64,000 bases of DNA from Phoronis australis (lineage: Eukaryota; Animalia; Phoronida): contig NMRA01000017.1 in NCBI GenBank assembly GCA_002633005.1, positions 74,463 through 138,462 on the forward strand, read 5' to 3'. This document shows positions 4,440-53,230 of this stretch, piece after piece. The notes under the pieces are model-generated. The model had not been told where the DNA came from, ran no database searches, and was given only the letters and a program-made list of their open reading frames with translations. Each line of letters opens with the position of its first letter. The first letter of the stretch is position 1. The position numbers and the translations under genes are program-made.

Positions 4440-4862
4440 CTCCACAAAATTACCACTTCCCTGCAAGTGCCAGAAAAAATTCGACTACAGATTCAGAATG
4501 CTTGTACTCTCTAAATACTACAAATGTGGTCATAGTATGCCCATTACTCGTGACCGGCTACTTTTTGATCTGTTTGACAGCCACCTGAAATCGCACCCGG
4601 TTTCTCGGACAGCAGACTACAGGGGTTGAAAGCAAATGACAGTCACCATTTTGCACCAAAAGTAGGTAACGGCTAAAAACTTAGCTTTTCTCATTCAAAA
4701 ACACAGGTAAATCAGTTTCCTGGCACTTGTTTTCAACAAATTCTTCGAACCACCCGTCAAACCTGACGTACCTGCGCCCTGTAGCCTACACACGCGTTTA
4801 GTTCCTTGATCCACCGGCAGGGAATGTTTTTGGGTTTGAGAGTAATAGAGTTCAAGATGGCG
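4440..4862 (+). promoter_or_regulatory. Putative SMARCD promoter / 5' region
   Basis: GACTACAGATTCAGAATGC (4483-4501) resembles the ZNF143/THAP11 ACTACA element, with further ACTACA copies nearby. ETS-like CACTTCC at 4454. YY1-type CAAGATGGCG overlaps the ATG. CpG is locally enriched. Confidence 0.5.
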
Positions 4863-4961
4863 ACGAGACCTCCCGGTTATCCTCAGCCAAATATGCAACA
4901 AAGACCTGGATTTCCACCCCAGGGTCCTCCAATGAGGCCATACCCTCAGCAGCCATTCGCT
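4857..4961 (+). CDS. SMARCD1: SMARCD exon 1 ([35 protein letters not shown])
   Basis: ATG in CAAGATGGCG context, Pro/Gln-rich N-terminus, GTAAGT donor at 4962, phase 0. Confidence 0.85.
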
Positions 4962-7900
4962 GTAAGTAACAATAGATTTATACACTTATTAACTGACTCG
5001 TTATTCGATGATTGCCTTGCTCTCAAAATAGGAATATTCGATTAGTTTTTCTTTGTCTTCATCTGCCTGGCCTTGCCCTTGGCCTTGCCTTGGTTTTCTC
5101 AAGTCAATGACTGGGTCGTAAATGAGTGAATCTCATGTTTCTCGAATGTACTTTTTTCGTTTTCTGTGGTAGGCAAGCCCAAGGCTTAGGGAATTTCGGC
5201 GAAAATTGGACGAAACCACCAAGCTAGTTGAGGTAGGTGGTTTCGCCCGAATTGTGTCGGCTAATACATTTGTGACGGGAGCGCCTTGTATTGATGGAGT
5301 CGTGAGTTAAGTCGAGTCGTCAGTCAAGATTTTGTTTAATTCCAGAAGCGGACCCCGGAAGCTAAAGTGGTCTACAATTACTGATATTTTAAATGGTTGT
5401 CTGTTGGTGAATCCCCTTATTTGGTACTTCCGATGACGAAAGTTTCACTTTACATTTTGATTGGTTTTTACAATTCAACTTGAGACCCCTATTTTAGCGC
5501 AATTTGGTACATTCGCGGTGTGAATTTGTCTATATAAATGCGCCCCAAATGGTCAAACTTTGGATTCTACCGAGTCTCGTTTCTATCTAGTAAGAGTCTC
5601 ACATTTTCAACCCTATATCGGGTCTCGATTCTATCCGGTTAGAGTCTCTACTTTTTAAGTTTTAACTTTAGGATCAACTTTAGCTTACAAACTTTTCATT
5701 TTCTTGGCTTTGGAGACTGACTTGGGCGATTTCGCAGTCGATCCAAACTATTTGAGATTACAATGACGATTGAAGCTAATGATGTGCTGTAAGTTTGTAG
5801 ATTTTTATTTTACATTTAGGGCATAATAAACTCATTATATATGTCTTCTCTCTTGTTTCACTCTCTATAAGTTGTCACCATCGTTCTCTCGTATGCGATA
5901 CGAATGAGTGAAAAGGGACACATTGCTGAAATTATTTTTATCGGCTATGAACAGTCGACTTTAGATCGGTGTTGGTCGCTCTACCGATTCCCGTTACACA
6001 TTCATTTGACAAGTCATGGGATATTTACAAATCAACCAGTTAGACTCCTTGTTCCTAGTTCAGCATTAATGCCTTTGAACTTAAAGAATAATAACAATGG
6101 TCAAAATCGGGGAAATTCGGACGCCAGTGCGGAAAATGGTAGAGAGCGTTGGAGAAATTCGTACCAGCAAATTCTATAGGTAAATCTCGGACAAAATATC
6201 TAATAGTACTTTATGATTTCAAAAAATGATAACAGGTGTTATTTAGCAGTGTCAGCATGAGACAAATAATAAAATTTGAGAAGTTGTCATGTCCTGGCCA
6301 CATTAACAGCCTTAAAATATGTCTTCCATTACCAATTTGTATGCAGCCTGCGTGGTAAGCAGTGCATTTGTTGTTAAAATTTAAGTCGTGAATTGACCTC
6401 TTAATGCAAAAGGTTATTATGTGAGTATGAATATCTCTCAAAAAAGCATTGAGAAAAGCATCTAGTAGTAGTAGCCCAAATGAATGGTGTCCAAATTTCC
6501 CCACGGCATACAATAAGTTGAGCATTGGGAAATTCAGACACCCATTTTTTGATCAAATCTTGCTTTTTGTATGTTTTTCAATTGAAATTAATACTGAAAA
6601 CAGCATGTGTTATGCGACCAGTAAATATATGTAAATTTACACGACAAGGGACCAAGTGACCTAATGAGAGTGCACCTACTGTAGAGTCATGGTGCCCAAA
6701 ATCACCGCGCCAATCAGGCGTCAGAGCAAAGTAAGGTGCTGAACATGCGTCATATGTGATAAATAAATTCCTACTATTGTTCCAGGAAATGAATAAGTTT
6801 TTCACTTAGTAGAAAAGCAGCTTTGTTATTATTTTTGACATTTGTTTAGACTCTGCCAAATTTTGTTGCCGTGGGGAGTTTCCCTGCAACCATACTCTTT
6901 ACCACACTAGGTCTATATATTGTGGAAAGAGTGTACTTATCTGTATCTCAGGCCCTTCAAGTTTAAGATCTATTTTCTGTATCCATCACTGGCACCAACA
7001 TTCACTTGTAAATTAACATAAAGCTTGGACACTAAAAATCAGTATTCTCAAAAGTTTCTACTATGAAGCTCTATGAAATTAGTATCGCACAAATCTTTGA
7101 ATACCTCCTTTCACCTGATCACATCATATTGCATTAGACTTAATATCTCTATCGATAGAAATTACAATTGATAGATAGTATCTCATGCATATGGGCGGCA
7201 CAGCTCTGAAACAAGTGGGGGGAAGGGGGTTATAGCTCCCCAGCCCCCTATGGTGTGCTGCTCATGAGGCATGTTTTCTGTTGAACATTTACCAGGTTTT
7301 TTATGTGTTTCAAGGTTGACACTCTGAAGGTGTAACTCCACAGTGTTATTCCTTTCTTATAAAGGCATTGCATTTTTCAGGGGAGCCCTGCTAGACCGAA
7401 CTTTGGCAGCCCTGGTCATCAAATGGGAGGCCCCCCTCGAATGGCCGGCCCTCCCCCTCCACCTGGGATGCCCATGCATGCCCACCCTGGTGGAATGCCA
7501 CACCCTTACCCAGTGATGACCCCGCAGAAAGGTTTGTGGAGATATTGAATTTTGCTTGAAAATGTCTATTCATCAAATTTCAGCTTATGTGGTAAAGATG
7601 GCTTCAACTTTAAAAGCAAGTTTTACTGTTTTTGAAAAACCCAATTTATACCTTGTACTGTAAACGCGTCTTGCTTTCTTTGAATCTTCCAAAACTTTTA
7701 ACTGTGTGTGCATTCATTTTAATTGAAATAATTGGTTTCAAGTGTTTGTGTGTTACCAAGTGCAGTGACCTTGGAGATAACTCAAAACTTCTCGATTCTC
7801 CTCTTGACAGCGAGCGGTAAAGCCAAGTCAAGTGAGTTTCTGAATGTTGTCATGGTAACCTTGCATGAGGGGGGGTAGGGCAAGCATGCTTGGATGTAAC

Positions 7901-10900
7901 ACTGTTGGCACTTCCTTCCACAATTGGGTCAAACTGCGCTTAGGTGCATCTAATGACGTCTGTTTTAGTACAGGTGTTGGGAGATCTGTATGTTTATCTT
8001 AGTAAAAGTCTGTAGTTAGCATGCTTATTAGGTAGGCTTAAATACTTGTGTTAGAAGATATGCTTGAACATAGTACAAAAGCCGATAATTTGCATTCTGT
8101 GATTGTATCAGTTGCATCTTCTTTGTGAAAGGAACTGTTATATGTTATTCTTAAAATTTTTTGCAACTCTGAGGTTTTGAATAAATATTCACTCCTTTGG
8201 GGATCATGGTTGCCACTTGCTTGACTAAGTTCCTGCATCAGTGCGATGACATCTAATGCAAGCCATCCCATTGTACGTGTGTGAAGGATACCAGCTACAA
8301 TCTCACCACAAAATGTTTTCCCTTGAATGCAGGAGCAACAGGCGTAGCTCACCACCAGGTGGAAACATATGACCTCGAGAAGTTTATGGGCAACAGCAGG
8401 GCCCCCTACTGGCTTGTTGAATTATTGAATTTTATGCTCTTGAAGACTGTATAGCCAAGTTGGCTTACTACTAGTCCTGGACAGCACTATAGTTAACATT
8501 GTACTGAGTCCAATGAGTTGAGGTGTATGTTATAGGTGCGAATGATATATTGCGAGTTGGAATGATTATCTATTAAAATTGTAAACAGACAACATTGCTG
8601 TGTGTTAAACCAGTCCTGTGTACAAGAGGGCTGCTGTCAAACTACTCGCAGTGTCACTCACCAGATACCACTGTCTTGCAGTCACAAATAGTGTTTGTTG
8701 GAAATAAGTGAAGAATTATGGTAGTAGCCAAAAGATGTCGCTCTAGTCAGCTAACTCTTTTCTTCTGTCTCTCCCCAGCCAAAAATAAAGAATCAGGTAA
8801 ACACATTGTTCCATCTTCTGTAGATCTTGTAGTATTCATGTTCAGTTGTCTGCATGCTGTTGGTGTACTTGGATTACTGTCACAGATGTAAGAGGGCGCT
8901 AGTGAGTTGTGTTTAGTGGAAATGCTCACCTGAACACACGTTGATGGGTAAAACTTTGTAGCATTACTGCAACTGTAACTGCATTTTGTAAAATGGGGGT
9001 ACATTACCTTGAACCATTGCGTTTCCTGGTGGTTTACTGAAACATTCACTAATCATTTGATGGTGAATGAGACATCTACTGGTGAATCTCCCCTCTCTTG
9101 CCTGTGTTGGGCTTTGTTTTGTTTTGTTTCGTTTTGTTTTGTTTTGTTACTAAAATAACATCTGCTTCTTGAAGGGAAATGACAGAGAATTTTAGCAACT
9201 GGTTTTGTGTAGACAAGAATAGACATGGTTAGGGTTATTGTAAAGCTATTTTATACTAAACCAGCTGCTGTGGCATGTTTACTATTTAAAATTTTCATGC
9301 AAGAGTAAATTTTTATAGTTTTGAGTCTTAAGTGTTGTGTTTCTACGGCAACTGTTTTTTCGTTATTTTTGTTACCATATTAAGAAGGAATCCTCGAGTC
9401 GCAAGACTGTGGCATGTTAGAGACGCTGCTCCGAATGAAGTAATTGTAAAACATAGTTAGTGTTTTTAAATTCTATTTAAAAATAGCTGAATGTTACTAG
9501 TGTATATATTGCCACTGTATACTTTTTCACCCCTTAGATCAACTGCTGCCAAGTGCAACTGCTGTAGAACTGTACATTTCAAGACGGCTTATTTTTGCCA
9601 GTTTGGTCCAGGCCATTTCATGACATTTCATTTCACTATTTGTCTTCTCTGGTCACTCCGGGCTTTCATGTTGGGAAACTTTAGGCTTGTTCCCTACTGA
9701 AGGAGATATTTTAACCCAGCCAGAATAGCTGACCACAGTTTTCCATTTTTAGTACGCACAGTTGCCCACGTAGATTTATGTGTAACTCTAAAAACATGCC
9801 TAAATTTGGCTAGCCTTAAACATCTCGTATCCAATTTTAATGAAATTTTCAGATATTGCACTTTAAATACTATTTTTCAAAATGCTGCTAGACATTATTT
9901 TTAAAATTCCCTACTTTGGTGTGAGGGTCCATCAGATTCTTATGGAAAGAAACTAAAAGTTGCATGAAAGGAAAATGAAATAATTTGGAAAAACGGTTGA
10001 AACATTTTTGATATTTCAAAAACTATGTATACATATGAGTTATTTCATAGTGAGGGATTATCACCAGAGGGCGCAGTGATAATGCCTCCAAATCCCAGTA
10101 GGGGTCCAGATACAGGAAGTAATGCCATAGGATATGTAGATATGGGTGATAACTCAGTAGTACATATAATGCTCTATTTATCCCAGATATTTAGCAATGA
10201 ACTTCATAAAACACGCAAAACAGAAATGAAAATAGTCAACTTTGTGTAACCTCAGTGATTCTTCATGCAGTGCACTGTATCAGACCACATGTGTGGACAT
10301 CTTATGTAGAACATCACAGCATGCTCATTATGTTTTCTCACTAAATCATTATTGGTTGTTACCCAATTGTTATTAATGATGCATGCTTGTATTGGCGGAT
10401 AAAAACATACCTTCCGTAAAAATTCTTCAGTTTGGTACACAATATGGCAGACAGATGAAATTTTGTTTCATCAAGTTTTTCAAGAGAAATAACTTCAGGA
10501 AAATTTAGTTTGCTTTTAGCATGGTTTGTGCGGGGTAGTTATTACGAAGCAACATTTGGTAAAATTTTGAGCGTTTGCAATAATGTGGTATGCATCTGAA
10601 AAATAAAAATATGGCAATTTTAACGATTATTTTTGTACCAAATTGAGGAATTTTTACGGTATTTAAATTGTGTAGTTGAGTAGGTACTTGACTAAGTACA
10701 CAGATGTTGGCAGAGTAGTGACTTTCAATGTCTTAACTTTGCTTAAATTGCATTTAAACCCATATTTGTGTGCTTTGTTATGCTACAAGGTCTGTGAATT
10801 TGTCATAATTTTATGTTTAGCATAGTGCTTTTAATTGATGTTGTTACAGTGCTTTGTATAACTTAGTTTTAATGCAAAATGTATACTGTTCTCTTGTAAT

Positions 10901-13900
10901 CGAAATCAGTGATTTTCATATTTGTTGTTGCGAGAACTGGGCGAACACGTAGCATTTTCGAAATTATTTTCTGTCCACACGCGGATTGTTCAAAAGTGTG
11001 TGGAACCATTTATACCGGAAATGCTGCACTTGTTATCCATACTATTACAATGAGAATCTTGTAAATGTTTTTGATGTGTTTTGCCTCTGTTCGTCTTCTG
11101 TTGACACCATGTTTTCACCGTAAATTCTCTGTACTTGTATGGTTTCTCTCTCTCTCACCACTCTCATCTCTGCCGTGTCCTATTTTCTACAGCTTCTAAA
11201 TCTAAGGATAAAGATTCTTCAGGTGTGTACAAATTGCATGCTGCATGTACACTGTACAACTAACACCTCTCTCTTTAAAGCCACGTTCTCACTTTGTGTC
11301 TAGTTGACCCTGAAGTCATTTGGTAAAATCTCACTACACGGCTGACAAGTGAAATTTTATGTTTTTATTTTTTTAATAGATTAGTTGCACCAAGTAAATG
11401 CTATACCATTTTAAGCATCTATGCCCTCAGACTATGTTTCTGGGAAATTGTGGACATTTAAAACTATGGAAACTTTTGAAAAATGAAAAGACCAATTTTA
11501 GTTTTGCCCGAAATTGGTGACGTTTCACCACGCATGAACTGGTGGCATACTGCTGTAGAGTTTACAGTTTGGTGATTCATCAGCCTTAAGTTTTTTGGCC
11601 TCAGGCGGAATGGGAACTCAGTTTGTATAACGTGTAAGAGTTGTATGGTGCTGTCTTAAGTTATAGTTAAGTAGCATATTAATTACTGTTAAAATGTTTT
11701 AGCCAGTCTTACATGGAGGTCCAAAAAATCAACCAAACAAATTTCATTGTTACTTTGTTTAATGCAATGGTTACTGAGTTTGACGCATCCCAGTTCAATC
11801 AGCCTGTGTGAAAGCAGCTTTAATTGGTCTTTTAAAACATTACCACTGTTCCTACAGAGGTGTGTATTGCAGCAGTTTTTGTGCAAAGAACTTGGAACTG
11901 TTTTAAACTGTGTAAACACTGTATGCTTAAAGTTGCTCTAAACCTCGGTTGTTCCAGCATTTTAACTTTTGACTAGTCATATACTATACAAGTGGTCTCA
12001 TCGTTGTCTCGTACTCAAATGAGAAGAGATTTTTTGGGCTTGGATAAAATCAGCAGTTCGTTGTTGAGAGCATGTGTCAGACACGTGATGACACGCTGTG
12101 ACAAGCTTGTGTGCACAACCACTAACAAGCTGTCAGTATTTTCCAAGTCCAGGGTAGAGTTCAGTGATGCTAGGATCTCACTTGAAAAGTATGACTTCGC
12201 GAGATTACACAACATATTGCCGTGTTCTTTAAATGAGATTTTTCTAGCCACGAGACAGCTACAGAACTTTACCCAGAATTCACCTGTAATTTTAGTAAGG
12301 AACAATTTCAAAACAGTAAGTTGTCTTCAGTTGGTGGAAGGTAGGTTTATTGCAGCTTTGAATTGGTGAGAAAGGTTGAACTTATTGCCCTGCTCAGAAC
12401 TTATAACTGGGTGGCTGTGTAGGTCTGCACGAGCTGAGTTGAGATGAAGAAGATGGCCAGCACTGGCATATCCAGAAGTATTCAATAGTATTATAGTGTA
12501 ACCACGAAATTGTGGGCAGGGGTTGGCGAAATGAGTGGCAAACTGGGGCTCTTTTCAAAGAACAGGTGCTAATCTCAAAACTGAAATTTGAATTTGTACT
12601 TCAGGGATTTTGTTTGCAATAAAGAGGAGGAGGGGCATGACCCCATTGTGCCGCTTTTCATTGTGGTGGCGTTGGTCATGCCCAATAGAAACCCCTATTT
12701 TGTCATTTTTGTAGCCCATGCATGGAAAGGGTACTTTTGAGTCATAACTGATGGCCACGGAGGGTAGATAATACAGATCTTACATGGTCCATAATAATTG
12801 AGGATCACTCTGGTACTAATATAGACTTGGTCTCTCATAACTCGGGTTGCTCTGGAACCTAGATAATATATAGATCCTGTTTTCAAACTTGGTCCATCAT
12901 AACTGAGGACCAAGTGCTCTTGCTAGATAGACCCCTGTTTTCTGTTTTGCACAATTCTTACTGAGAACCACAGTTGTTAGATATGTGGACTCCTCTGTTC
13001 TGTCCTTATACAGACATAACTCTGCACTTGTAACTGAGGATCACTGGCTCCACCCACTTGTAACTGAGGATCACTGGCTCCACCCACTTGTAACTGAGGA
13101 TCACTGGCTCCACCCACTTGTAACTGAAGATCACTCTTGCTAAGTTGTTTTTACATGAGGAACAGTTGTCATGGCGCGAGTTGTCACAGCCCATTTACAT
13201 TTACACGCAACATTAGATGGCAAACTGGATCAGCAGGAGTCATTTACATGACAAATGTCTGTGCTTGCTTGCATAAACAGTAGTGAATGTTCAAAGCCTG
13301 TGGAATGCTAGCGAATCACTTGTATCTGTGGTATTACGCTGGCGTAATTGAAATGATCCTTTCCGCCTTGCCCCAGTTTGTGTTTAGACATGTAATTGAA
13401 ATTGGAGCAATTGATCGAGTGCAATTCACTCTATCTCTCAAATCGGTGTCAAAAATGGTCGCTGCGGTGTCAACTTGCTCCGTGTCTGGTGTTTACCCAC
13501 AAATCTCTGCGGATCAGCTGTTCCATGATAGTTGCTCCGTGACAACTTTCTCCGGTGTAAATGCAACTTTAGATGTATAGATCCCTGTGTTCTATCCTGA
13601 CAGTCATACCTCTGTACTACTGGCAACCCCTATTGTAACTGAGGTTTACTGTAGTTACTTGTCTAGATTCTCCTGTCTTATGTCAACTGCACCTTTCACT
13701 CTTAAGGCAAGTCCCGTAAAAAGAAAGACAAAGAAACAGACGGTGATACCGACAGCAATAGTGAGGGTAACTAGCGGGCATGACACTTTGTCACAGTCAA
13801 TATTATTTGATATTTGTTTTCTTATTATTTTAATATGTTTTCATTTCTTTATAGTTACACAGCGTTCTTCACGATTCGTTATTAGTTTAACTGTTGTTTG

Positions 13901-16900
13901 CTAAAAAGATAACGTCGCAAAAGAAAATGGATGATTGTATTTTGATTGCGCTTGTGATACTAAGTGTTACTACCGTACTTGTCCAAGGTAGCGCCCATAT
14001 CCAGCTTACCCGTCTCCCCCCCCAAATTTTCTTATTTTCACTTCAAAAAAAACCATTTATGTGACTGAGACTTCCTTCAGTGTCTTTGTGAACGGCAGCC
14101 TCATCAGAATTTTGGTACGGAACGTGCTTAGCTATGAGTAATGATGGATCATTTTCTGTGGAATCTTGCATTATTTGGTCAGGAATATAACCATGCTGTC
14201 CTCATCTTTACAGAAGGAGACATGTTTAGGCTCATGCTAACTGTAATTATCTTTAACGAAAAAACAGTTGTGTAAGCAGCTCATTGTATGTGTAATGTTC
14301 GTAAAGGAACGTACATTGCAGTATGTTGCACTAATGAATTTCTGTGGGCAATTATTCTCTTTCTTTGGGTAAGTCCCCCCTCGACTTCTCGGAAATTTTG
14401 TATGTTAATTATCTATGTTTTTGTTAATGCCTACCCCCTGGTTTTTGAGTTCCTCAATTTAGCCACCTTGGACGACCACTGTATACACCAAACTATCCGG
14501 TGCAAGTTTTGCACGTGTTCCACCGTGGACGAGCACGGTAGTCACCAAATTGTCTGGTGCAAGTTGTGCCCTTGTGTTCCACCTTGGACGAGCACGGTAT
14601 ACACCAAATTATCTGGTGCAAGTTGTGCACAATGTGTTCCATTCATGTGCTGTTTCGTATTCTTTCTGTGAAGAAATCTGTGCCTGTGCTCTGATAGCTC
14701 TCAGTGCACTGGAAGCCTGTTGTTATTACAATCCCGTGTGGAGTATTCAGTCCCAGTGTTCTATCATTTTCTGCCTTTCAAAATTGTCAACAGTTTCAAG
14801 CCAGTAGGAGAAGTATACAAATACAACATTATGAACTTGCACTTAAAGACAACATATCGTGCCCTAAAGTTACTATCTTTTACATTACCTTTGTATCACC
14901 AATGGAGTGTGGCAACTGAGCACGGACTCCCCAACTCAGTAATGAGTGTGTTGCATCTGAACTGGAGAAAGTGTTGATAATAGTTACCAAGGAACGAATG
15001 AACAAACATGAACAAACACTCTTGTTCAATGTCAGTGCCACCATTTATTATTTCTAATCTACGTCGTATATTGTGTATTAAATTACTTGTTGCCTTGTGG
15101 CTTGATGTTCATGTGATTGACAGCATGTTGTAAGTAAGTAGTTGTATTTTGACAGATGTCAGCCAGTCATGTGTAGTAATGTTCTCCACAAGACACTGTC
15201 TTTGACAACACTTCTGGGAGGTTTGTGTACAATGTTACATGAACCGGTACTTTAAACTGGCCCAAAAGTGAACAAATATCCTTATATATTTGACAAAGGG
15301 GTGCGATAAATCTCCCATTTATTGAAACTTGTTGCATTGGTTTTTAAACTAGCCACGTTGAAAGACATCCGTATGGATGACAAGTCAAAACAGTTTGTGG
15401 AAAACACTGTATGTTGTTGCCAGTTTTCTTAAAAGTGCTAATTAGAATCTTGAAATGTTTGATTTTGAACAGTCATGGATAATTCATATTGTTTACCGTA
15501 ATCGTTCGGGTTAACGCCCTGGGCGGTTAAATTGGCGAACCCAAAAAATCGGGGGAGGGCGGTTAACCGAGCAGTGGGGGGTTAAATCGAAAATCCACTT
15601 AAAGTAGGGGATGGGTGGTTAAGTGAACATGGGCGTTAACCCGAACAATTACGGTAGTTTCTCTACGGTTCATTGAAAACAGTGTAGTCCATCTGAATGT
15701 TAGACTCTTGGTCAACTGATGGAAATATGAACTTGTGTCAGTTACAAAAGACTGATTGTTCTTGACGTGTGTGAGTTGTAGTATAAACTCAGAAATTTTT
15801 TGCATTTCACAGATGAAATTGTTTCTTAAACATTTTTGTCCCATTTATGATGTTGAAAAAGTTGTCTGAAGTCATAAAAATGCTTTCATGTCAAATGCGT
15901 TCTTGTAAACAAAATAATATGAAAGTTCATGTTTTCTGGAAAGTTAAACGAGTTCCAATTTTAAAATTTTTTTTCTCCCAACATGTCGACTATCCTCATT
16001 AAATAGGGTCGCAAGCTTCATTGTGTTAGAGTAAAAAATCTTCAATTTTGGACAAAAATAGTTGCAAATGCTCAAAATTTTACCAAATGTTGCTCGGTAA
16101 TAGCTACCCCATACAAACCATTCAAACAGCAAAGTAATTTTTCCTGAAATATCATTTTGTTAAGAAATTTGACGAAGTGTAATTTCATCTGTCTGCCATA
16201 TTGTGTCCTAAGTTGAAGAGTTTTTATCATGCCGTTTTGTGTTGTTTTGTTTTGTTAGTTATTGTCAGGTAGTTATAATGACTACCATGGTATTATATTC
16301 TGTGCTAACCAGCTTTGTCTTTCTCTCTGTAATCATTCTGCGGTGATTCTGACGTCTCCGCCATCTCTAGTCACAGCTACCACTGCCATCTGTTGTCGTA
16401 CACTGTAGTGATCTGAGCTATAGGACTGATGTCTTGTGACACAGTTCCAGTCAGTGTACAAACTCTGCTCAACTGATGCCACGCCCGATTCCAGTATCAG
16501 AAAGTGGCTTGTGTCAATGCTATCTTGAACTGTTCATTGCAGCAGTCTCAGTCATCAATTGCAATGATGTGCCAATAAACTGTTTGTAATCTTGTCAACT
16601 GCTCTAGATGTATTTGCTAATATTGCAAACTGTTTATTAAGTGATCATGTTTACACAAACATTCTACAAATGGGACTGGGTGTTACATCCAATGTGTCTC
16701 CATGGAAACCCGTTTATTATCAAATTGCAATGTTAGGTCTAGATTTCCAATCACTAGGCACCAGTTGAGCCAGCTTCCAAAATGTTTAGGGTCCACAATT
16801 TTTAGGAGTACATGAACCAGTCCAGAAATGATAACATTAGTGCAAAACACTGGATGTTGAAAAAGTGAGACGAACCTGGTGTTATCGTTTTACCAACAGA

Positions 16901-19900
16901 GAATACAGGAAGGTAACTAACTAATGAAACTTAGAGTATTTCTTCAGTTTTATTTCTTACAAAAGTGATTTATCCATAAACTGGATATGCGCCATCTCCA
17001 GCTTTGTGCCTAATGATGCAAAAACATAGCCTCGGCCGAGCACTACTGACCATTGCTTGGCGGTGATGCCAGCATGAAATAAGATGCGTCTCATAACGTC
17101 TGCACTATCTCTACAGATGTCAAGTCCATGTGTCTCCCATGATCTTGTTTCTCTGCCCATTATAGGTATGGCCATGCCTAGAAGTGGTATGTCCCCAGCC
17201 ATGCAGTCGGACAGAAAGAGACCACACTACGACCCACGCGCACAACAGATGAATCGACCCCCGTATGTACTTGGCTTAAAATTGACCAACCGTGTCCAGG
17301 CATGCCAATGAGTCAGCATTTTTAGTATTTAATTTTAAGTTTGTGATACGTTGCTCTTCAAGCAATGATTGGTCTGTATGTTTCATTAATATTGACCAAA
17401 TATTGAATTATGCCCACATTTTTTACTCGAGTTCTACTATGATTGTTCATGGTTGGTTATTACACCTGGCAGTTCTGTACAAGCTGATACACAACGAAAC
17501 TTAATTACTGTATGGATAGACATTAATTTTGTTTGGAACTGTGGATGTTTGTGTGTTTTTCAGGAAAAAGAAGAAAAAGCTGGCTGACCGTATACTGTCA
17601 CAGCGAGTACGCGATCTGGTGCCTGAATCTCAGGCCTATATGGATCTGTTGGCGTTTGAGCGCAAGTTGGACTCGACCATCATGAGAAAGAGGCTTGATA
17701 TACAGGAAGCTTTGAAACGGCCTCAGAAGGTGCAGTATTCTTTGCGAGTACATGATGCGATTCCTTGTCATATCTTCCTTCCTGTCGGGTTACGGCCAGT
17801 CAGCCTTGCAACTAGAACACCAAGACTTCACTGTTCAAAATCTTACTACTTACAGTAAATGTGCACTTTCAAGACTCATGTTTCTGCTTTCAGCTTAAGT
17901 AGTACAGTTGCAGTATGTAACATTACCCAACCCTGTGGATGGTTGGCCCATGTTGTTGCTGACCTGTGATAACAGCTTTTGGTGTGAGGACATACTGAAG
18001 ACTGGTTCAACTTAATCACTTAGTTAGTCTCTCTACAGAATGTACACAAGTCTACGCAAACAAAATAGCCGACCTAATGCCTGTTCTAATGCTCCAGCCA
18101 GTGCTGTGAAGCCTTGACTTATGATGAGCTCTTGAGTCCTTTTTAGCAACTGTCACACTTGTAGACTGATTCAATAACTTGCTGTCTCTAGCTGGCTCAT
18201 TTTTGTCTCAGAAACAACTCTGTAACTGCTCACGCTGTGATTAACTTGTGCCGGAGTATCACAGTGTCATATAATGTTCTAGAACTTTTCACCAACTCAA
18301 GCACATTCTAGAACTTTTTGGAATGTGCCTTATCATTATACTTGTATATGTTTTGGTCAAAAAGGTTCTAGACCATGGTTCTATGTCAGTCAGTAATATG
18401 TTGGCACCTAGTAGAATGTTCTCAAGTATTCTAAAATATAAACAATTACATAATCACTGGTCTGACATAACTCGGTCATGTCAGTCAAGTACACAAATAA
18501 AACAGCCATACAAAACTGAAAGAACTAAAACCAGTGCTAGCCTCCCGATGCAGTAGTTGACCAGGATTTGGGTTATGTATTTTGCCTTTTCCCATCTTGG
18601 TTTTTATGTTTGGATATTGAGCAATGAAATTTATGTTTACTATTAATTATTTATAGCAAAAAAGAAAGCTGCGTATTTTTATCTCCAACACATTCTACCC
18701 TGCTAAGCCAGACAATGAAGGCGAGGAAGCTGAGAACATTGCATCATGGGAACTGAGGGTTGAAGGTCGGCTCCTGGAGGATGTAAGTTCATAGCATGAA
18801 CAGTTTGTACAATAATAAATTCAATGAGAGAATTGCACAAACTCCTGGAGATCACATTTAAAGTGCTTAAAACCACCATTTACCTTATTTTAACAAGTAA
18901 ATCTTCCTTTGTAGCGCTGCATATCACAACCATGAATTCAATATCCCAATAATGAGAAAATAGATCAGAAGTGGCTGCAGTTCCTTAGATCCATGGATAT
19001 GACCGTCATTTTTCAAAGACTGATTACTTTGCTACAAACAGTTGAAACTTGACCAAATGTTTTACGATATCTGCACAGTACAAACTATCCTGGTAATAGA
19101 GTAAAAAAAATTTTTAATCTTTATTTTTGTGAAGAAATTTGACAAAGTAGATTTTCACTTGTCCGCCATATTGTGCGCTAAATATGTGGAAAATTACGGT
19201 AATTAATTATTGACTGTGCATCTGTTGCAGAACTTTGCCTCTAAACCTCCAGAACAAGGAAAGAGCAAAAGGAAGTTTTCAACATTCTTCAAGAGTTTGG
19301 TGATAGAGCTGGACAAGGAACTGTATGGTCCTGATAACCACTTGGTGGAGGTGAGTCAATGTTTTATGTCTGTGTGGCGGTGAGTGTTAATGTTAACCTG
19401 AAAGTCTGGGTTGGGTTGTATAAACCTTCAAAAGTTATCAGCTGGATAAGTTTGATTGTTGCATGACGTCAGGTGTTTTGTTCAACAACAACAACGCGGC
19501 ACGTGATATTGTGATCTCATTGTTACTACATGTGCTACTTTTATGCAACTGAGCCCAGGTGTTTATTGAGATGTAGCACAAATTAGTTTTCAGTATAAAG
19601 TAGTCTGACGTTGACAGAACTCTGCCGAACTTGTATGAATTTCTTGCCAGAATTATTAATCGGGCTTAGTCGACTTTTTGTCACAATAAAATAGCGTTTG
19701 TGTCAAACTTTTGTCGGATTGTGAAAATGTGTTATGCTATCTTTGGAGTCATATAATGCTTGGTGTCACTCTGTTTCAGTGGCACCGTACCCCAACCACA
19801 CAGGAGACAGATGGGTTTCAGGTGAAGCGACCAGGTGAACATAACGTCAAGTGTACAGTACTACTCATGCTTGACTATCAACCCATGCAGTTCAAGTTGG

Positions 19901-22900
19901 ATGCACGCCTCGCTCGTCTCCTGGGTATACACACACAGACTCGCCCCGTCATCATCAATGCACTCTGGCAGTACGTGAAAACACACAAGCTTCAGGATCG
20001 TCATGAGCGCGAGTTCATCAACTGCGATAAGTATCTGCAACAGGTAGGTGGAGGGGGATATGTGTGATAAGTACCTGCAACAGGTGGGTGGAGGGGGTAT
20101 GTGTGTTGGGGGTTAGGGTTGGGTCAGGTAGTTTTATCTTGATTGGCAAGGCTACCTCACAAAATCCAACATGCTTGAATGGTCCTTACTAGCAAGATTA
20201 ATTGATATACTACCCTGTTCAAAGTAGCAAATATTATTTAACCTTTGGCTCTTCAGTGGCTTATTCAAAGATTCACACTTATCTCATTACTTGAGTTCAG
20301 CTTCACGCTACAGCAGTTTTCATTCAAAAACTAGGTCAATGGAATTCTTGTCGAAAATTGATGAAATTCTAATGCATAAATTTTCTGCTTAATTGTTTAA
20401 AACTTCATTTTTTGCCTGTTTACTTCTTGGTTTTTGCCATGTTTGATGAAGTTAGAAGAAATGTGACGAAATTTGTTGAAGCATCTTTTTTGAAATCTAC
20501 TGTACCATCTGTTTACCGATCATTGCTTCTAAATGTATTTTTAATTTTACTATGCAGTACTACTAAATACATGGCTAGTTTTACTAGGTAGTAGTACTAT
20601 GATATTTTCACTGAATATTGGTACCAAATGTAGTGCTAGTTCTACTGGATAGTACTACTACTAATCTGTTGCTAGTTCTATTGGGTAGTACTACTACTAA
20701 TCTGTTGCTAGTTCTACTGGGTAGTACTGCTACTAATCTGTTACTAGTGATACTGGGTAGTACTACTACTAATCTGTTACTAGTGATACTAGGTAGTACT
20801 AATACTAATCTGTTACTAGTGATACTGGGTAGTACTACTACTAATCTGTTGCTAGTTTTACTGGGTAGGGCTACTACTAATCTGTTGCTAGTTTTACTTG
20901 GTAGTACTACTAATGGTTTTTTCTTCTCCCTTGCTTGCAGATCTTTGAGTGTAGCCGTATCAAGTTTGCCGAGATTCCTCAGCGCCTACATAACTTGCTA
21001 CATCCTCCAGACCCTATCATCATCAACCACGTGATTCAGTAAGTACTTCCCCGACCCTATCATCATCAACCATGTGATTTAGTAAGTACTTCCCCGACCC
21101 TATCATCATTAACCACGTGATTCAGTAAGTACTTCCCCGACCTATCATCATCAACCACGTGATTCAGTAAGTACTTCCCCAACCCTATCATCATCAACCA
21201 CGTGATTCAGTAAGTACTTCCTCGACCCTATCATCATCAACCATTTGATTCAGTAAGTACTTCCCCGATCCTATCATTATCAACCATTTGATTTAGTACT
21301 ACCCTCTACTGTGTCACTTGTGAGTGTGTACACATTACAGTGCCATCTGTGACTGTCAACAGATGGCACTGTGATCAACTCTAGCCACACACAATGTGTA
21401 CATGCTCCATGTTCTAAGTCTTAATTTTAGGGTGATTTCTCGAGTCTTATGCTTTTGATATTTTTGTTGGTCACAGAAATAGGATCCTGCCACAGTAAGG
21501 AATATTACGAGTCCGATTTTTTTTAGTGTAAAAGGTCCAATTCAGTTTTTGTTTTTTAACCTATTAAGCAGTGCAAAATGCCTGCTTTAGGTAATGAGGT
21601 GGGCAATAATTTATGTTTTCTCCAATGTATCTAGACTTGTTTTCATTTTGCTCATTTGTGACACATGTCTTTGGAATGAAAGTTTAATCTAATTTCTCCT
21701 CCTATGGTGGAGATGAAACTGTGACTTTGTTTGTGATCTCTTTCAGTTTAGGTATCCAGTAAATCATGTGCTTTTGATATCAGCCTCAGACAGCATTGTA
21801 ACCAAACTATGATGGACTATGCCACAATGATGGAGTGTTTTGGTAGCGATTTTGAGGTTTAATAGATATAGACTTTGCCGCAATGACAGAGTGTTTTGAT
21901 AGCAATATTGAGGTTTAATATAGATAAAGATAAATCAACAGATGACTATGGACTTTGTATTGAAGGGTTGAAGGGCCTGATGCTGCCAAGAAGACAGCGT
22001 GTTATGATATTGATGTGGAGGTGGATGATACATTGAAACAACAGATGAATCAGTTCTTGTTGTCTACACAGAGTCAACAGGAAATCACAGCTCTCGATGC
22101 CAAGGTAGACTGTCTTTGAACTGAAATGCACAACCAGCGGGATTGTATCAGAGAGTGAATATATTTTTTTTAACTTAAAGATGTATTTGCAAGCTCCTAA
22201 CAATAGGAGGGACTAAACAAAAATGTTGTTTTAACATAATCTACGCTAAACAAAGTGCAGTTGTATTCATTGACAACTTGAGAAAACAAAAAAATTCTGT
22301 AAATACCATAGCCACTTGGTATTTTATTAAAGGTCACCAACAGCAACAATCCAAGAATCATTTTACTTTTTCAGGATTTGCAATTCAGGCAACCTAAGAA
22401 TGTTATTCAGTTTTTTGTTTGTTATATAATTATTTCTAAAGATAATCGCCACCATACATTACATGTCAAAACTACTATGAATGGGAAAAGTTTCTACCAA
22501 ATTACAAAAAAATAACTTTGTCTCTGTTATCATTTTATTACTTGCTTAAACTTTGCTTTAAGTGTTCATCGTTTTGTTGCAAGCACACTTGCTGGTGGCA
22601 AGAAAAGTTGTCGCTGACTCAACTACATTCGTTGAAGTTTGTATGGCTGATTTTTGCAGTGGTTTCTCTCCAGCTTTTTAGTGCTATTTGGATAATTTGT
22701 ATAAGCATTATTTTTAGCCTCCATGTTTTATCGTTCACCGAATGAATCATTTTATTGTGTAAATTGATATATGTCCCACACTGTGACTATACTTCTTCAC
22801 CCAGTAGGGGGTCAGAAGGTCTGTGGTTTGACTCCAGTATTGCACTAACGTGTCTCTTACTCCTCTTGGCTCGACATTAGTTGTGACGTGTAATGAAGTA

Positions 22901-24452
22901 AACTTGGATTTAAAGCAATTTTCAGGGAGTAGTGTATTGTGCTAATATTAAATTATTGACCCACTTGCAGATTCACGAGACAGTAGACAGTATCAACCAG
23001 CTGAAGACAAGTCGTGAGTTCTTCCTCGGCTTTGCTAAGGATCCACAGGAGTTCATCAACAACTGGCTCATCTCACAAACCCGCGACCTCAAGGTACACA
23101 CTTTTATTATGACGAAGTTTTTGTTGTAGCTTTGTTGAACCACATGCAGCACCATCTGTTAGAGCGCTATTTTAGATGTCAGCTCTTAAGCTGTTTTTGA
23201 AAGATAATTGATTGCTGAAAATGCAAAATATTTAAACACTCATTGGTTATAATTTGGTGTTAGTGTCAAGAACATGTGCTTAATTTACTGTATTTAGATA
23301 CATCTGTAATTTTAAAAAATTAGTGAATTTCATCAAACGTTTTCGCTTTGTTGAAGCTGTGGCAAAACTTCAGACAAAAATACTTCATACCTAAATATTT
23401 TTTAAATTATCCAAAACGTTGCACTCTGAAACTTTTCCTGATTTTTGAAGAGAAAAGATTCTTCAGCCTTTTTTAAAAAACAGGATTTCTTGCATGGTGG
23501 CCATGTTTCCACTTGGGTGAACTTAATCCTGTTTTTCTGTTGTGTCCCAGACCATGACTGAGGTGGTAGGTAACCCCGAGGAAGAGAGGCAGGCTGACTA
23601 CTACAACCAACCCTGGACCCAGGAGGCCGTGTGTCGCTACTTCTATACTAAGGTAAGCACCACAAGATTTGACTGCCGATGATGAGTAGGTAGGGGGAAG
23701 CCCCCCGTACAGTTTCGCAAAATCTGTCAAACTCGCCTTCTCCCCTCGCAGTATTAATTGTGGACGTGGCCAAGTCAGCAACATAGTGATTCTGGCTAGA
23801 GGGCAGTAGTGTTCATGACTTGAAGGTCTGTAGTCTGCTTGGTTGACATGACGCTGACTAAATGGCAACAGTGTTCATGGCTTGGTGATCTTTAGAATGT
23901 TTGACTCGTATGACTAGCTAAATGACAACAGCGTTCATGTTTGCCCTTCCTTATCTTAAGTCTGCCCCGTCGGGAATGAAATTTTGACTGTAGTAGTCTA
24001 ATGTGTGTTACGGGTATAAGACAAGCATCTGCAGTTCATTCATATATTGTACTAATACCAATAATACAGTCATACTTCACAAACTCCGATAAAAGACTGC
24101 CTAAAATCACGAGATCTCCAGAGAACCCGCATGGACGTTTGCATATCAATGACTAGCCAATAGCTTCAAGTTTCAAGAAGACGTCACAATGGACATCAGA
24201 ATACGAATAATGACTTGCGCTTATGGGCCACATGTTTGAAGTAGTACACTAAATTAAAATCACTAAGGTTTGCATCTTGATTTACGAATTGTTTTAAATT
24301 CTGAGCATGACTCATCATCAATGCGATGGAAACCACATCTTTTTTGGTACGTTTTCGTTTTTGAATATTTATCATCATGTATTTTTTACATTTACTAGGT
24401 GCAACAAAGGCGAGTTGAATTGGAGCAAGTTCTGGGAATACGCAATGCCTGA
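4857..24452 (+). CDS. SMARCD1: SWI/SNF chromatin remodeller subunit BAF60 (SMARCD family, SWIB domain); whole gene model, 12 constitutive coding exons, ~514 aa
   Basis: Exons 4857-4961, 7381-7531, 17166-17262, 17564-17729, 18657-18782, 19231-19350, 19780-20043, 20941-21038, 21966-22104, 22971-23093, 23551-23652, 24399-24452. All GT-AG, phases consistent, total 1545 nt. Recognisable BAF60 motifs: [72 protein letters not shown]. Probably the single invertebrate co-orthologue of SMARCD1/2/3. Confidence 0.96.
7381..7531 (+). CDS. SMARCD1: SMARCD exon 2 ([21 protein letters not shown]...PVMTPQK)
   Basis: tttttcAG acceptor, open Pro/Gly/Met-rich frame, GTTTGT donor, phase 0 to 1. Confidence 0.85.
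7811..7831 (+). CDS. SMARCD1: SMARCD candidate microexon A, 21 nt (ASGKAKS)
   Basis: ttctcctcttgacAG acceptor, GTGAGT donor, phase 1-1, no stop, TGCATG at 7862. Confidence 0.65.
8779..8796 (+). CDS. SMARCD1: SMARCD candidate microexon B, 18 nt ((A/T)KNKES)
   Basis: CTAAC branch point at 8751, near-pure pyrimidine tract ending ccccAG, CAG|GTAAAC donor, phase 1-1, TGCATG at 8851. Confidence 0.75.
10420..10585. repeat. Interspersed repeat copy; opposite-orientation copies at ~16060-16225 and partial at ~19110-19185
   Basis: Shared CACAATATGGCAGACAGATGAAAT...AGCAACATTTGGTAAAATTTTGAGC. Confidence 0.8.
11193..11222 (+). CDS. SMARCD1: SMARCD candidate microexon C, 30 nt ([10 protein letters not shown])
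   Basis: ~135-nt AG-free CT-rich zone ending ttttctacAG, CAG|GTGTGT donor, phase 1-1, two TGCATG at 11235 and 11242. Confidence 0.75.
13025..13136. repeat. 30-bp minisatellite (~3.7 copies, degenerate copies upstream)
   Basis: Unit CACTTGTAACTGAGGATCACTGGCTCCACC. Confidence 0.9.
13707..13766 (+). CDS. SMARCD1: SMARCD candidate small cassette exon D, 60 nt ([20 protein letters not shown])
   Basis: cctttcactcttaAG acceptor, purine-rich exon, GAGG|GTAACT donor, phase 1-1, GCATG at 13778. Confidence 0.72.
14463..14640. repeat. ~58-bp tandem repeat (3 copies)
   Basis: CCACCTTGGACGAGCACGGTATACACCAAATTATCTGGTGCAAGTTGTGC variants. Confidence 0.85.
15496..15654. mobile_element. Tc1/mariner-pogo type MITE
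   Basis: 24-bp TIRs CCGTAATCGTTCGGGTTAACGCCC / GGGCGTTAACCCGAACAATTACGG (1 mismatch), flanked by TA on both sides. Confidence 0.85.
17166..17262 (+). CDS. SMARCD1: SMARCD exon 3 ([32 protein letters not shown])
   Basis: tctctgcccattatAG acceptor, GTATGT donor, phase 1 to 2, RKRP motif as in BAF60 N-termini. Confidence 0.85.
17564..17729 (+). CDS. SMARCD1: SMARCD exon 4 ([36 protein letters not shown]...KRPQK)
   Basis: Near-identical to the conserved BAF60 block; AG/GT boundaries in frame. Confidence 0.96.
18657..18782 (+). CDS. SMARCD1: SMARCD exon 5 ([13 protein letters not shown]...[12 protein letters not shown])
   Basis: Conserved BAF60 motifs, ttatAG acceptor and GTAAGT donor. Confidence 0.95.
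19231..19350 (+). CDS. SMARCD1: SMARCD exon 6 (...[28 protein letters not shown])
   Basis: Conserved motif, ttgcAG acceptor and GTGAGT donor. Confidence 0.95.
19780..20043 (+). CDS. SMARCD1: SMARCD exon 7 ([19 protein letters not shown]... start of SWIB domain)
   Basis: Conserved SWIB sequence [13 protein letters not shown]; tttcAG acceptor and GTAGGT donor. Confidence 0.96.
20024..20105 (+). repeat. ~40-bp tandem duplication spanning the exon 7 donor
   Basis: GATAAGTATCTGCAACAG|GTAGGTGGAGGGGG is repeated as GATAAGTACCTGCAACAG|GTGGGTGGAGGGGG. Confidence 0.9.
20630..20914 (+). repeat. 36-bp minisatellite (~8 copies) just upstream of the exon 8 acceptor
   Basis: Unit CTGTTGCTAGTTCTACTGGGTAGTACTACTACTAAT. 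Confidence 0.92.
20941..21038 (+). CDS. SMARCD1: SMARCD exon 8 ([32 protein letters not shown])
   Basis: SWIB C-terminal half; ttgcAG acceptor and GTAAGT donor. Confidence 0.95.
21010..21300 (+). repeat. 43-bp minisatellite (~6.7 copies) containing the exon 8 end and donor
   Basis: Unit GACCCTATCATCATCAACCACGTGATTCA|GTAAGTACTTCCCC. Confidence 0.95.
21966..22104 (+). CDS. SMARCD1: SMARCD exon 9 ([24 protein letters not shown]...ALDAK)
   Basis: Conserved motif. The acceptor is weak (tgtattgaAG) but is the phase-compatible site. Confidence 0.9.
22971..23093 (+). CDS. SMARCD1: SMARCD exon 10 ([41 protein letters not shown])
   Basis: Conserved motif, in-frame boundaries. Confidence 0.95.
23551..23652 (+). 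CDS. SMARCD1: SMARCD exon 11 ([34 protein letters not shown])
   Basis: Conserved motif, cccAG acceptor and GTAAGC donor. Confidence 0.95.
24399..24452 (+). CDS. SMARCD1: SMARCD last coding exon ([17 protein letters not shown])
   Basis: Matches the BAF60 C-terminus; TGA at 24450-24452. Confidence 0.95.
   Translation: MQQRRVELEQVLGIRNA

Positions 24453-28213: not shown

Positions 28214-53230
<25,017 letters not shown>

Follow-up and report, generated by a model that had tools for sequence, protein, structure and literature searches.

The stretch of DNA analysed here (the window) comprises 64,000 nucleotides of the phoronid Phoronis australis (contig NMRA01000017.1, positions 74,463 to 138,462, forward strand; coordinates below count from its first letter). 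It contains a SMARCD/BAF60 gene whose long second intron holds an array of small, frame-preserving cassette exons. Two of these, ME1 and ME2, are alternatively spliced in RNA; a third, ME3, is very probably a real exon and a fourth, ME4, probably so, judging from splice sites and encoded motifs. Comparable isoforms are present in public protein models of related animals, and such a multi-exon, motif-repeating BAF60 array is apparently undescribed.

Alternative splicing of small exons in a BAF60 gene

The host gene lies on the + strand and has 12 exons, from an ATG at 4857 to a stop at 24452, encoding 514 amino acids (aa) without the cassettes. Exon 7 matches the Pfam domain SWIB (E 2e-19) and the core shares 84-85% identity with SMARCD of molluscs, annelids and brachiopods; by domain and core identity the gene is SMARCD/BAF60. 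In a quick tree of 50 rows it falls outside the molluscs, in an unresolved position beside Lingula, a nemertean-type series and annelids. Intron 2 is 9634 nucleotides (nt) long, 4 times the next longest, the other 10 introns spanning 301-2419 nt. An earlier reading of the bare sequence (the original prediction) had already singled out this intron for its length and proposed four small exons within it, and on both counts our check of the sequence agrees: all four segments are preceded by AG and followed by GT, have lengths divisible by 3 (21, 18, 30 and 60 nt), sit in phase 1-1 and contain no stop. Every one of the 16 combinations is in frame; inclusion of all four lengthens the protein by 43 aa, and the added net charge ranges from 0 to +4, so that the stepwise charge tuning proposed at the time stands as a stepwise change, only over a narrow range.

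The gene and its cassettes are as follows, the RNA evidence being explained below.

4857..4961, + strand: coding exon 1, ATG at 4857 (gene model; joint 4961-7381 in 3/3 raw-read runs)
7381..7531, + strand: exon 2, encoding a Pro/Gly/Met-rich tail, phase-1 end (gene model; RNA joints)
7532..17165, + strand: intron 2, phase 1, containing the cassette array; excised whole in the skip-all form (RNA joint in 4/4 runs)
7811..7831, + strand: ME1, 21-nt optional exon, internal residues SGKAKS, net charge +2 (RNA reads)
8779..8796, + strand: ME2, 18-nt optional exon, KNKES, net +1, top splice pair of the intron (RNA reads; rank 1/53)
11193..11222, + strand: ME3, 30-nt candidate optional exon, SKSKDKDSS, net +1 (rank 3/53; family motif; similarity p 0.007; AG-free zone)
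13707..13766, + strand: ME4, 60-nt candidate optional exon, basic then acidic, net 0 (purine content, motifs), weakest of the four
17166..17262, + strand: exon 3, with a phase-1 acceptor used by all forms (RNA joints)
17564..24452, + strand: exons 4-12, a constitutive Lys run followed by the folded BAF60 core with SWIB, to the stop (gene model; RNA joints for exons 3-4 and 4-5)

Under a strict definition of microexons (27 nt or less), only ME1 and ME2 qualify. The wider limit of 51 nt or less (PMC12064062; here and below, citations refer to the accessible parts of the papers) admits ME3, and ME4 exceeds both, so the term microexon fits the first two members best.

RNA was represented by four runs (X1 to X4), one a contig set and three stranded raw-read runs, with 18-19% of each read run examined; joints with fewer than 3 reads were not listed, and the counts given are those among the joints listed. 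Exon reads match the window with few differences. The joint from exon 2 directly to exon 3, which skips all cassettes, is present in 4/4 runs (1 contig; 5, 2 and 3 reads). A joint from exon 2 to ME2, with ME1 skipped, is seen in 3 reads of X2 and 1 read of X3, where the short side of 23 letters would fit ME2 plus the first three bases of exon 3. Finally, ME1 is connected to exon 3 in 4 reads with 3 starts from run X3, in 3 of which ME2 letters lie in between. Because the skip-all, exon 2-ME2 and ME1+ME2-exon 3 forms all occur in RNA, ME1 and ME2 are real and optional: they are alternatively spliced and not constitutively included, as the original prediction had it. ME1 and/or ME2 are present in 8 of the 18 listed raw reads and in 2 of the 4 runs, and 3 of the 16 possible forms were seen in total. 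The single continuous 43-aa peptide that had been envisaged is not among these forms, none of which contains ME3 or ME4. Differences between X2, X3 and X4 involve counts too small to be read as regulation, and depth profiles are uninformative on such small exons because intronic reads run at 1-2x.

Predicted Rbfox-type control

The segments downstream of the four exons carry the following predicted Rbfox and QKI-type sites (motif scan).

7862..7888, + strand: TGCATG (+31) and GCATG (+53) downstream of ME1, predicted Rbfox sites
8851..8856, + strand: TGCATG (+55) downstream of ME2
11235..11264, + strand: two TGCATG (+13, +20) and one QKI-type ACTAAC (+37) downstream of ME3
13778..13782, + strand: GCATG (+12) downstream of ME4

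GCATG occurs within 60 nt downstream of 4/4 exons and upstream of 0/4, compared to 5% of background windows outside the exons. The full TGCATG follows ME1-ME3 (3/4 exons, versus 1.4% of background windows), so that the downstream UGCAUG noted originally holds for these three, ME4 having GCATG only. Within 100 nt of the gene's ordinary donors, GCATG is found in 2/11 cases and TGCATG in 0/11. Downstream (U)GCAUG promotes exon inclusion (PMC11701043, PMC12064062), and because GCAUG lies within 60 nt downstream of all four exons, we regard Rbfox-type control of the cassettes as moderately likely. The candidates may have been picked by this very motif in the first reading; both RNA-proven exons still have TGCATG. 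SRRM4, which had been named alongside Rbfox, leaves no clear signature: the nearest upstream TGC lies at -50 for ME1, -22 for ME3 and -19 for ME4 and is missing for ME2, so the two RNA-proven exons have none close by. Motifs for MBNL, Nova, CELF and PTB around the cassettes form no clear pattern.

Cassettes at the same site in other lophotrochozoans

Homologue searches and cluster look-ups yielded SMARCD isoform sets of relatives with inserts at the same site as the window array, between an HPY-like motif and an M-x-R-[PS]-G motif, with a shift of the junction residue that agrees with phase 1. Besides P. australis, molluscs, Lingula and a nemertean-type series all have cassettes there; the array is not peculiar to this animal, and public models of other lophotrochozoans already hold such isoforms. 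Examples are Lingula anatina XP_013410646-XP_013410737, the Octopus bimaculoides XP_014770215 series, XP_050418020-031 (Patella cluster), XP_056007634-643, which we take to be oyster, and XP_064647596-599, presumably nemertean. Records provided the names Lingula anatina, Octopus bimaculoides, Patella, Mytilus, Ridgeia, Paralvinella, Owenia and Cimex, while oyster, scallop, abalone, Aplysia, Biomphalaria, Babylonia, clam, nemertean, crinoid and brittle star are labels that we assume from accession ranges. All sets are automatic protein models with cassette borders taken from length differences, not exon DNA; automatic isoform models generally rest on RNA junctions.

Taking one species per group and excluding duplicate oyster and scallop series, we obtained 32 cassettes in 11 species; they measure 18-102 nt, and 29 do not exceed 51 nt. 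Two annelid single models, which do not show exon borders, were kept out of the module counts and used in the similarity and motif analyses. As in the window, the relatives carry small Lys/Ser/Thr cassettes in several combinations; the sets differ in cassette number (1-6), order and sequence, and are known from protein models only. One oyster series contains 8/8 combinations of three cassettes, and the scallop, abalone and nemertean-type series and a gastropod added later contain 4/4 combinations each. The combinatorial use proposed originally, with up to 16 isoforms, is thus annotated as mix-and-match in relatives, with the 3 forms described above seen here. Lineages differ in how many cassettes they have, how long these are and in which order they stand. 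Two gastropod series with cassettes come from different contigs and resemble paralogues, which gives no support to the original idea that splicing takes the place of paralogues. Within the window, DNA likeness among the four exons and their flanks is not above that of random intron pieces (6 pairs, p 0.13-0.83), so a recent tandem duplication of the exons is not supported.

Inserts were also seen elsewhere in the tail. An echinoderm-type series (P0390-P0393, P0247, P0292, P0331; labels assumed) has a second cassette set one intron earlier, after a GYP motif. At this earlier intron the crinoid-type series has three cassettes (21, 11 and 14 aa; charges +1, +2 and +1), the brittle-star-type series one or more, and octopus (P0020, P0021, P0149) several. 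In Cimex (P0065/P0069) and Neodiprion (P0431/P0432), optional inserts of 11-14 aa lie shortly before the Lys run, at a third tail site. From these sequences, the BAF60 tail seems to have gained cassettes repeatedly. In a second Owenia model (P0019/P0465), the cassette site is occupied by a Ser/Thr-rich piece containing one Lys, and the model also differs downstream; this piece may be another exon or reflect a paralogue.

A shared motif and unit charge

The relatives' cassettes share a short motif. [KR][STAN]K[DE] is present in 13/32 cassettes from 7/11 species, compared to 0.53 expected from within-module shuffles, and the looser K-x-K-[DE] in 15/32 (1.3 expected). The narrow form does not occur in any of the 11 skip-all proteins (5631 aa), and 79/79 arthropod, coral and vertebrate N-termini lack it. 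A second regularity concerns charge: 26/32 cassettes have a net charge of +1, versus 7.3 when residues are shuffled and 12.7 when signs are shuffled, as do 16/19 cassettes of five distant lineages (4.1 expected). The held-out gastropod, added afterwards, has two cassettes, both +1 and one with KSKE. In the window exons K-x-K-[DE] occurs five times (0.6 expected), in ME2, ME3 and ME4. SUMO, PKC and Lys-Ser (serine ADP-ribosylation) motifs, searched with patterns that we assume to be the usual ones, are not enriched in the cassettes. We consider it rather likely that the cassette motif itself is under selection.

Cassettes could also act without any motif being read, as polar, slightly basic spacers that would break up the Pro/Gly/Met tail and shift self-association or DNA contact. 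Such pure charge or solubility tuning would suit the +1 balance of the 26 cassettes, which holds even with 1, 3, 5 or 11 charged residues, the richness of the inserts in Ser, Lys and Thr (26%, 15% and 11%, compared to 5%, 7% and 2% in the flanks), and the similar composition of the echinoderm cassettes, which lie in a different intron and have no motif. However, residue order is far from random, given the excess of the motif and the depletion of KK and CK2 sites, and the shift of 0 to +4 here is small on tails that are already at about +13 in relatives, making this explanation unlikely. We give slightly less credit to the idea that the cassettes are a tolerated by-product with little function, tiny exons needing purine-rich enhancers that translate into Lys, Asp and Glu, with any in-frame insert being acceptable in a disordered tail. 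ME4 is indeed among the most purine-rich stretches of the intron, cassettes change in number, length and order between lineages, and the Lys-Asp/Glu dipeptide is enriched on its own (26 versus 8.7). Purine content does not, however, predict the +1 balance; the motif has a small residue in its middle, for which ME3 uses the pyrimidine-rich codon TCT, and the same site is used in molluscs, the brachiopod, the nemertean-type series and the window animal.

ME3 and ME4 as candidate exons

Splice sites were scored with a small model trained on the gene's 11 ordinary introns, retaining candidates of 6-90 nt with scores of at least 0 at both ends. Of the 53 that passed in intron 2, ME2 ranks 1, ME3 ranks 3 and ME1 ranks 9; among the 8 that are also symmetric and open, the ranks are 1, 2 and 4. 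A cut at the score of ME1 combined with K/S/D/E content and a downstream GCATG leaves 3 segments in the intron, 0 in its reverse complement and at most 0 in 100 Markov copies, these filters having been picked after the exons were known. Without splice scores, the top 12 by K/S/T/D/E content among 454 open symmetric AG..GT segments are ME2, ME3 or ME4 sub-pieces. A filter on composition and tract keeps 10 overlapping segments in the intron and 5 in the reverse complement (7 versus 1 when GCATG is added). The proposal that the segments exceed chance holds by splice rank for ME1-ME3 and is weakened for ME4, which is below the splice-score cut (acceptor 0.6, donor -0.6). A candidate 6-nt short form of ME1 (7811-7816) scores equal to the 21-nt form and is absent from the reads.

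ME3 is preceded by a 136-nt AG-free zone, and its summed similarity to the relatives' inserts is significant (p 0.007); that of ME4 is not above shuffles (p 0.41). ME4 has a purine fraction of 0.72, reached by only 0.1% of other 60-nt windows, and carries two K-x-K-[DE] motifs. Three in-frame donors are candidates for its 3' end, 13742 (36 nt, +3), 13760 (54 nt, +1) and 13766, which match 4, 4 and 6 of 9 consensus letters; ordinary donors of the gene match 4-8, so that 13766 falls within their range. The excess of K-x-K-[DE] provides the main support for the predicted exons ME3 and ME4.

The joints looked for included exon 2-ME2 and ME1(+ME2)-exon 3, which were found, and joints into ME3 and ME4, for which there is no listed read in the three raw-read runs and the contig set, at low depth and with about 18 listed reads crossing the region. 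A homologue search with exon 2 alone gave no match, so it yielded no protein from P. australis transcripts that includes ME3 or ME4. One could conclude that only ME1 and ME2 are live and that ME3, and especially ME4 with its failed splice-score cut and three possible donors, are decayed or cryptic exons. We find this improbable, to about the same degree as the by-product explanation: ME3 combines its splice rank with two TGCATG and the family motif, ME4 stays open over 60 nt with GCATG at +12, two K-x-K-[DE] and a donor at 6/9 consensus letters, and the RNA sampling was shallow. The mechanism first suggested, in which full inclusion would build an extra nuclear localisation signal and a CK2-regulated acidic tail, is very improbable, since ME4 with its basic run and two CK2-type sites is the least supported exon, those two sites are at chance level for the window (2.6 expected), exon 4 supplies a constitutive Lys run in all forms, and in relatives, one strongly basic octopus cassette aside, KK occurs in 2/32 cassettes versus 6.1 expected and CK2 sites in 1/32 versus 5.7.

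Position in the protein and proposed mechanism

In the all-in Lingula model, used as a stand-in, pLDDT is below 50 over residues 24-165 and the insert occupies residues 82-128. The cassette site is therefore predicted to lie in a disordered tail, in line with the N-terminal location proposed originally. The Lingula insert lies just before the stretch aligned to human BAF60A residue 94, and human BAF60A residues 43-167 are reported to bind nuclear receptors and SMARCA4 (PMC6862534). Because the tail site maps into this stretch, the modules would be expected to tune partner contact.

On balance, and with limited confidence, we favour a mechanism in which Rbfox-type control sets the number of short basic modules in the tail, tuning its contacts or modification with the core unchanged. 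An Rbfox-type splicing factor would switch on the cassettes of intron 2, and with each exon spliced independently in phase 1, cells could set the module count of the tail. The folded core would remain untouched and assembly into BAF be retained. The Lys/Ser modules would dose a short basic motif, a predicted target of modification or binding, and, at a position equivalent to about residue 90 of human BAF60A, may tune partner or nucleosome contact.

A number of observations weigh against this reading or parts of it. In addition to the absence of listed reads for ME3 and ME4 and the low splice score of ME4, the runs X1-X4 carry no tissue labels. Only one factor-binding site on BAF60A has been solved, and it lies in the folded part rather than the tail, PU.1 binding the YEATS-like and SWIB part (10.1101/2025.08.01.667454). 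In Lingula, 11 forms of six cassettes are annotated and all 10 insert-bearing forms retain module 1, so that use is not freely combinatorial. Exon-by-exon orthology with the relatives is not evident, the best single matches having p 0.03-0.15 and the module order being unlike that of Patella. The motif and the +1 rule were found from the data, depend on each other and come from related species. The window charges are +2, +1, +1 and 0 for ME1-ME4, so only 2/4 are +1, and the narrow motif is present in only 2/4 window exons; it is missing in 4/11 species, with scallop, Mytilus and the nemertean-type series lacking it, and octopus has Arg at the second Lys. With respect to modification, the SET7/9 consensus is K/R-S/T/A-K-D/N/Q/K (PMC8949485) and the enzyme prefers basic surroundings (PMC6261651). 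The three-residue core is found in 13/32 cassettes (2.7 expected) and the strict consensus in only 6/32 (0.6 expected); in the window the core is present in ME1 and ME3 and the strict consensus in ME3 only (p 0.43). Glu at +1 falls outside the consensus, the target Lys is not kept across lineages (as the octopus Arg and the species lacking the narrow motif illustrate), and literature searches on SETD7 in molluscs gave unrelated papers and no confirmation of the enzyme in these animals.

Methylation of the cassette lysine by a SETD7-type enzyme is accordingly doubtful, even though SET7 methylation controls the stability of SMARCC1/2 (PMC10889763; PMC9637158). Similarly speculative is an extended version of the favoured mechanism, a splicing counter in which each exon would contribute one net positive charge and usually one SETD7-type methyl-Lys site, Rbfox would set the units per cell type and thereby grade stability or partner binding, and the array would be rebuilt by exon turnover in each lineage, echinoderms and insects having reached cassettes in neighbouring introns. 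If this were true, ME4 would prefer the 54-nt donor at 13760, which makes its net charge +1.

Relation to known systems

Small exons that tune chromatin regulators are already known in vertebrates. The neuron-specific microexons of LSD1, PHF21A and TAF1 (PMC11864812) are likewise small in-frame exons in broadly expressed chromatin complex subunits; they are single exons with measured neuronal specificity and effects, whereas the BAF60 exons form an array in a disordered tail. The accessible part of that paper names BAF among the complexes, and 'SMARC' is absent from this text, the gene list sitting in a figure. Splicing of exon 7 of DPF2/BAF45d also re-tunes a BAF subunit, and in muscle and neurons the 24-nt, charged MEF2 beta microexon modulates a transcription regulator (both PMC11701043). 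These two are single exons with reported PTBP1 or SRRM4 control, the MEF2 one being acidic, in contrast to several slightly basic modules with downstream Rbfox motifs. The Rbfox/QKI-driven Snap23 microexon (PMC12064062) shares the downstream (U)GCAUG and, for ME3, ACUAAC; binding and dependence were tested for Snap23 and are predicted from motifs for BAF60. The methyl-degrons of SMARCC1 and SMARCC2, which act via SET7, L3MBTL3 and CRL4-DCAF5 (PMC10889763), provide a precedent for SET7-type Lys motifs in a BAF core subunit. There the lysines are constitutive and have been tested, whereas the BAF60 motif would be spliced in and might be methylated.

Vertebrate BAF60A/B/C (PDB 6LTH chain P) share the folded core (699 bits over Lingula residues 133-564). 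Their N-termini, in contrast, have no such insert: across 72 proteins the maximum K/S/T/D/E density is 7/10, the motif is absent, and variation is found in first exons. In the accessible literature, searches on SMARCD/BAF60/Bap60 splicing and on mollusc, lophotrochozoan and chromatin-regulator microexons returned no description of the array, although supplementary tables of splicing surveys could hold these events.

Other features of the window

High-copy interspersed repeats in intron 2 (10390-10650, 15490-15660 and 16050-16190) attract many off-target reads on both strands. Further downstream in the gene, a 40-nt two-copy repeat (20026-20105) duplicates the end and donor of exon 7, and a 43-nt unit present 6.7 times at 21010-21298, outside the stretches compared with RNA reads, copies the end and donor of exon 8, which produces a series of alternative donors that are out of frame. 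On the - strand (approximately 28180-55940), the tail of a HECW-type ubiquitin ligase gene faces that of SMARCD; the ligase gene has Pfam HECW_N, C2, HECW1_helix and HECT and an 809-codon open acidic exon at 43043-45472. An assembly gap (approximately 50450-50967; 514 N in the window) sits beside 30-nt tandem repeats. A broken frame at 620-1020 has no recognisable match.

Implications for BAF60 diversity

Vertebrates vary their BAF complexes by swapping paralogous subunits, and to our knowledge BAF variation in animals with few paralogues has been little studied. A modular array in the BAF60 tail, found in several lophotrochozoan phyla, offers a concrete and testable route by which such animals may vary BAF, and large public RNA sets exist for some of them, including oysters, Aplysia and octopus. 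The recurrence of the motif and the unit charge suggest that a region of BAF60 outside the folded core, with predicted disorder, has a function. Gene models of the skip-all type understate BAF60 diversity in these animals, in which one gene could adjust its predicted disordered front end in small steps.

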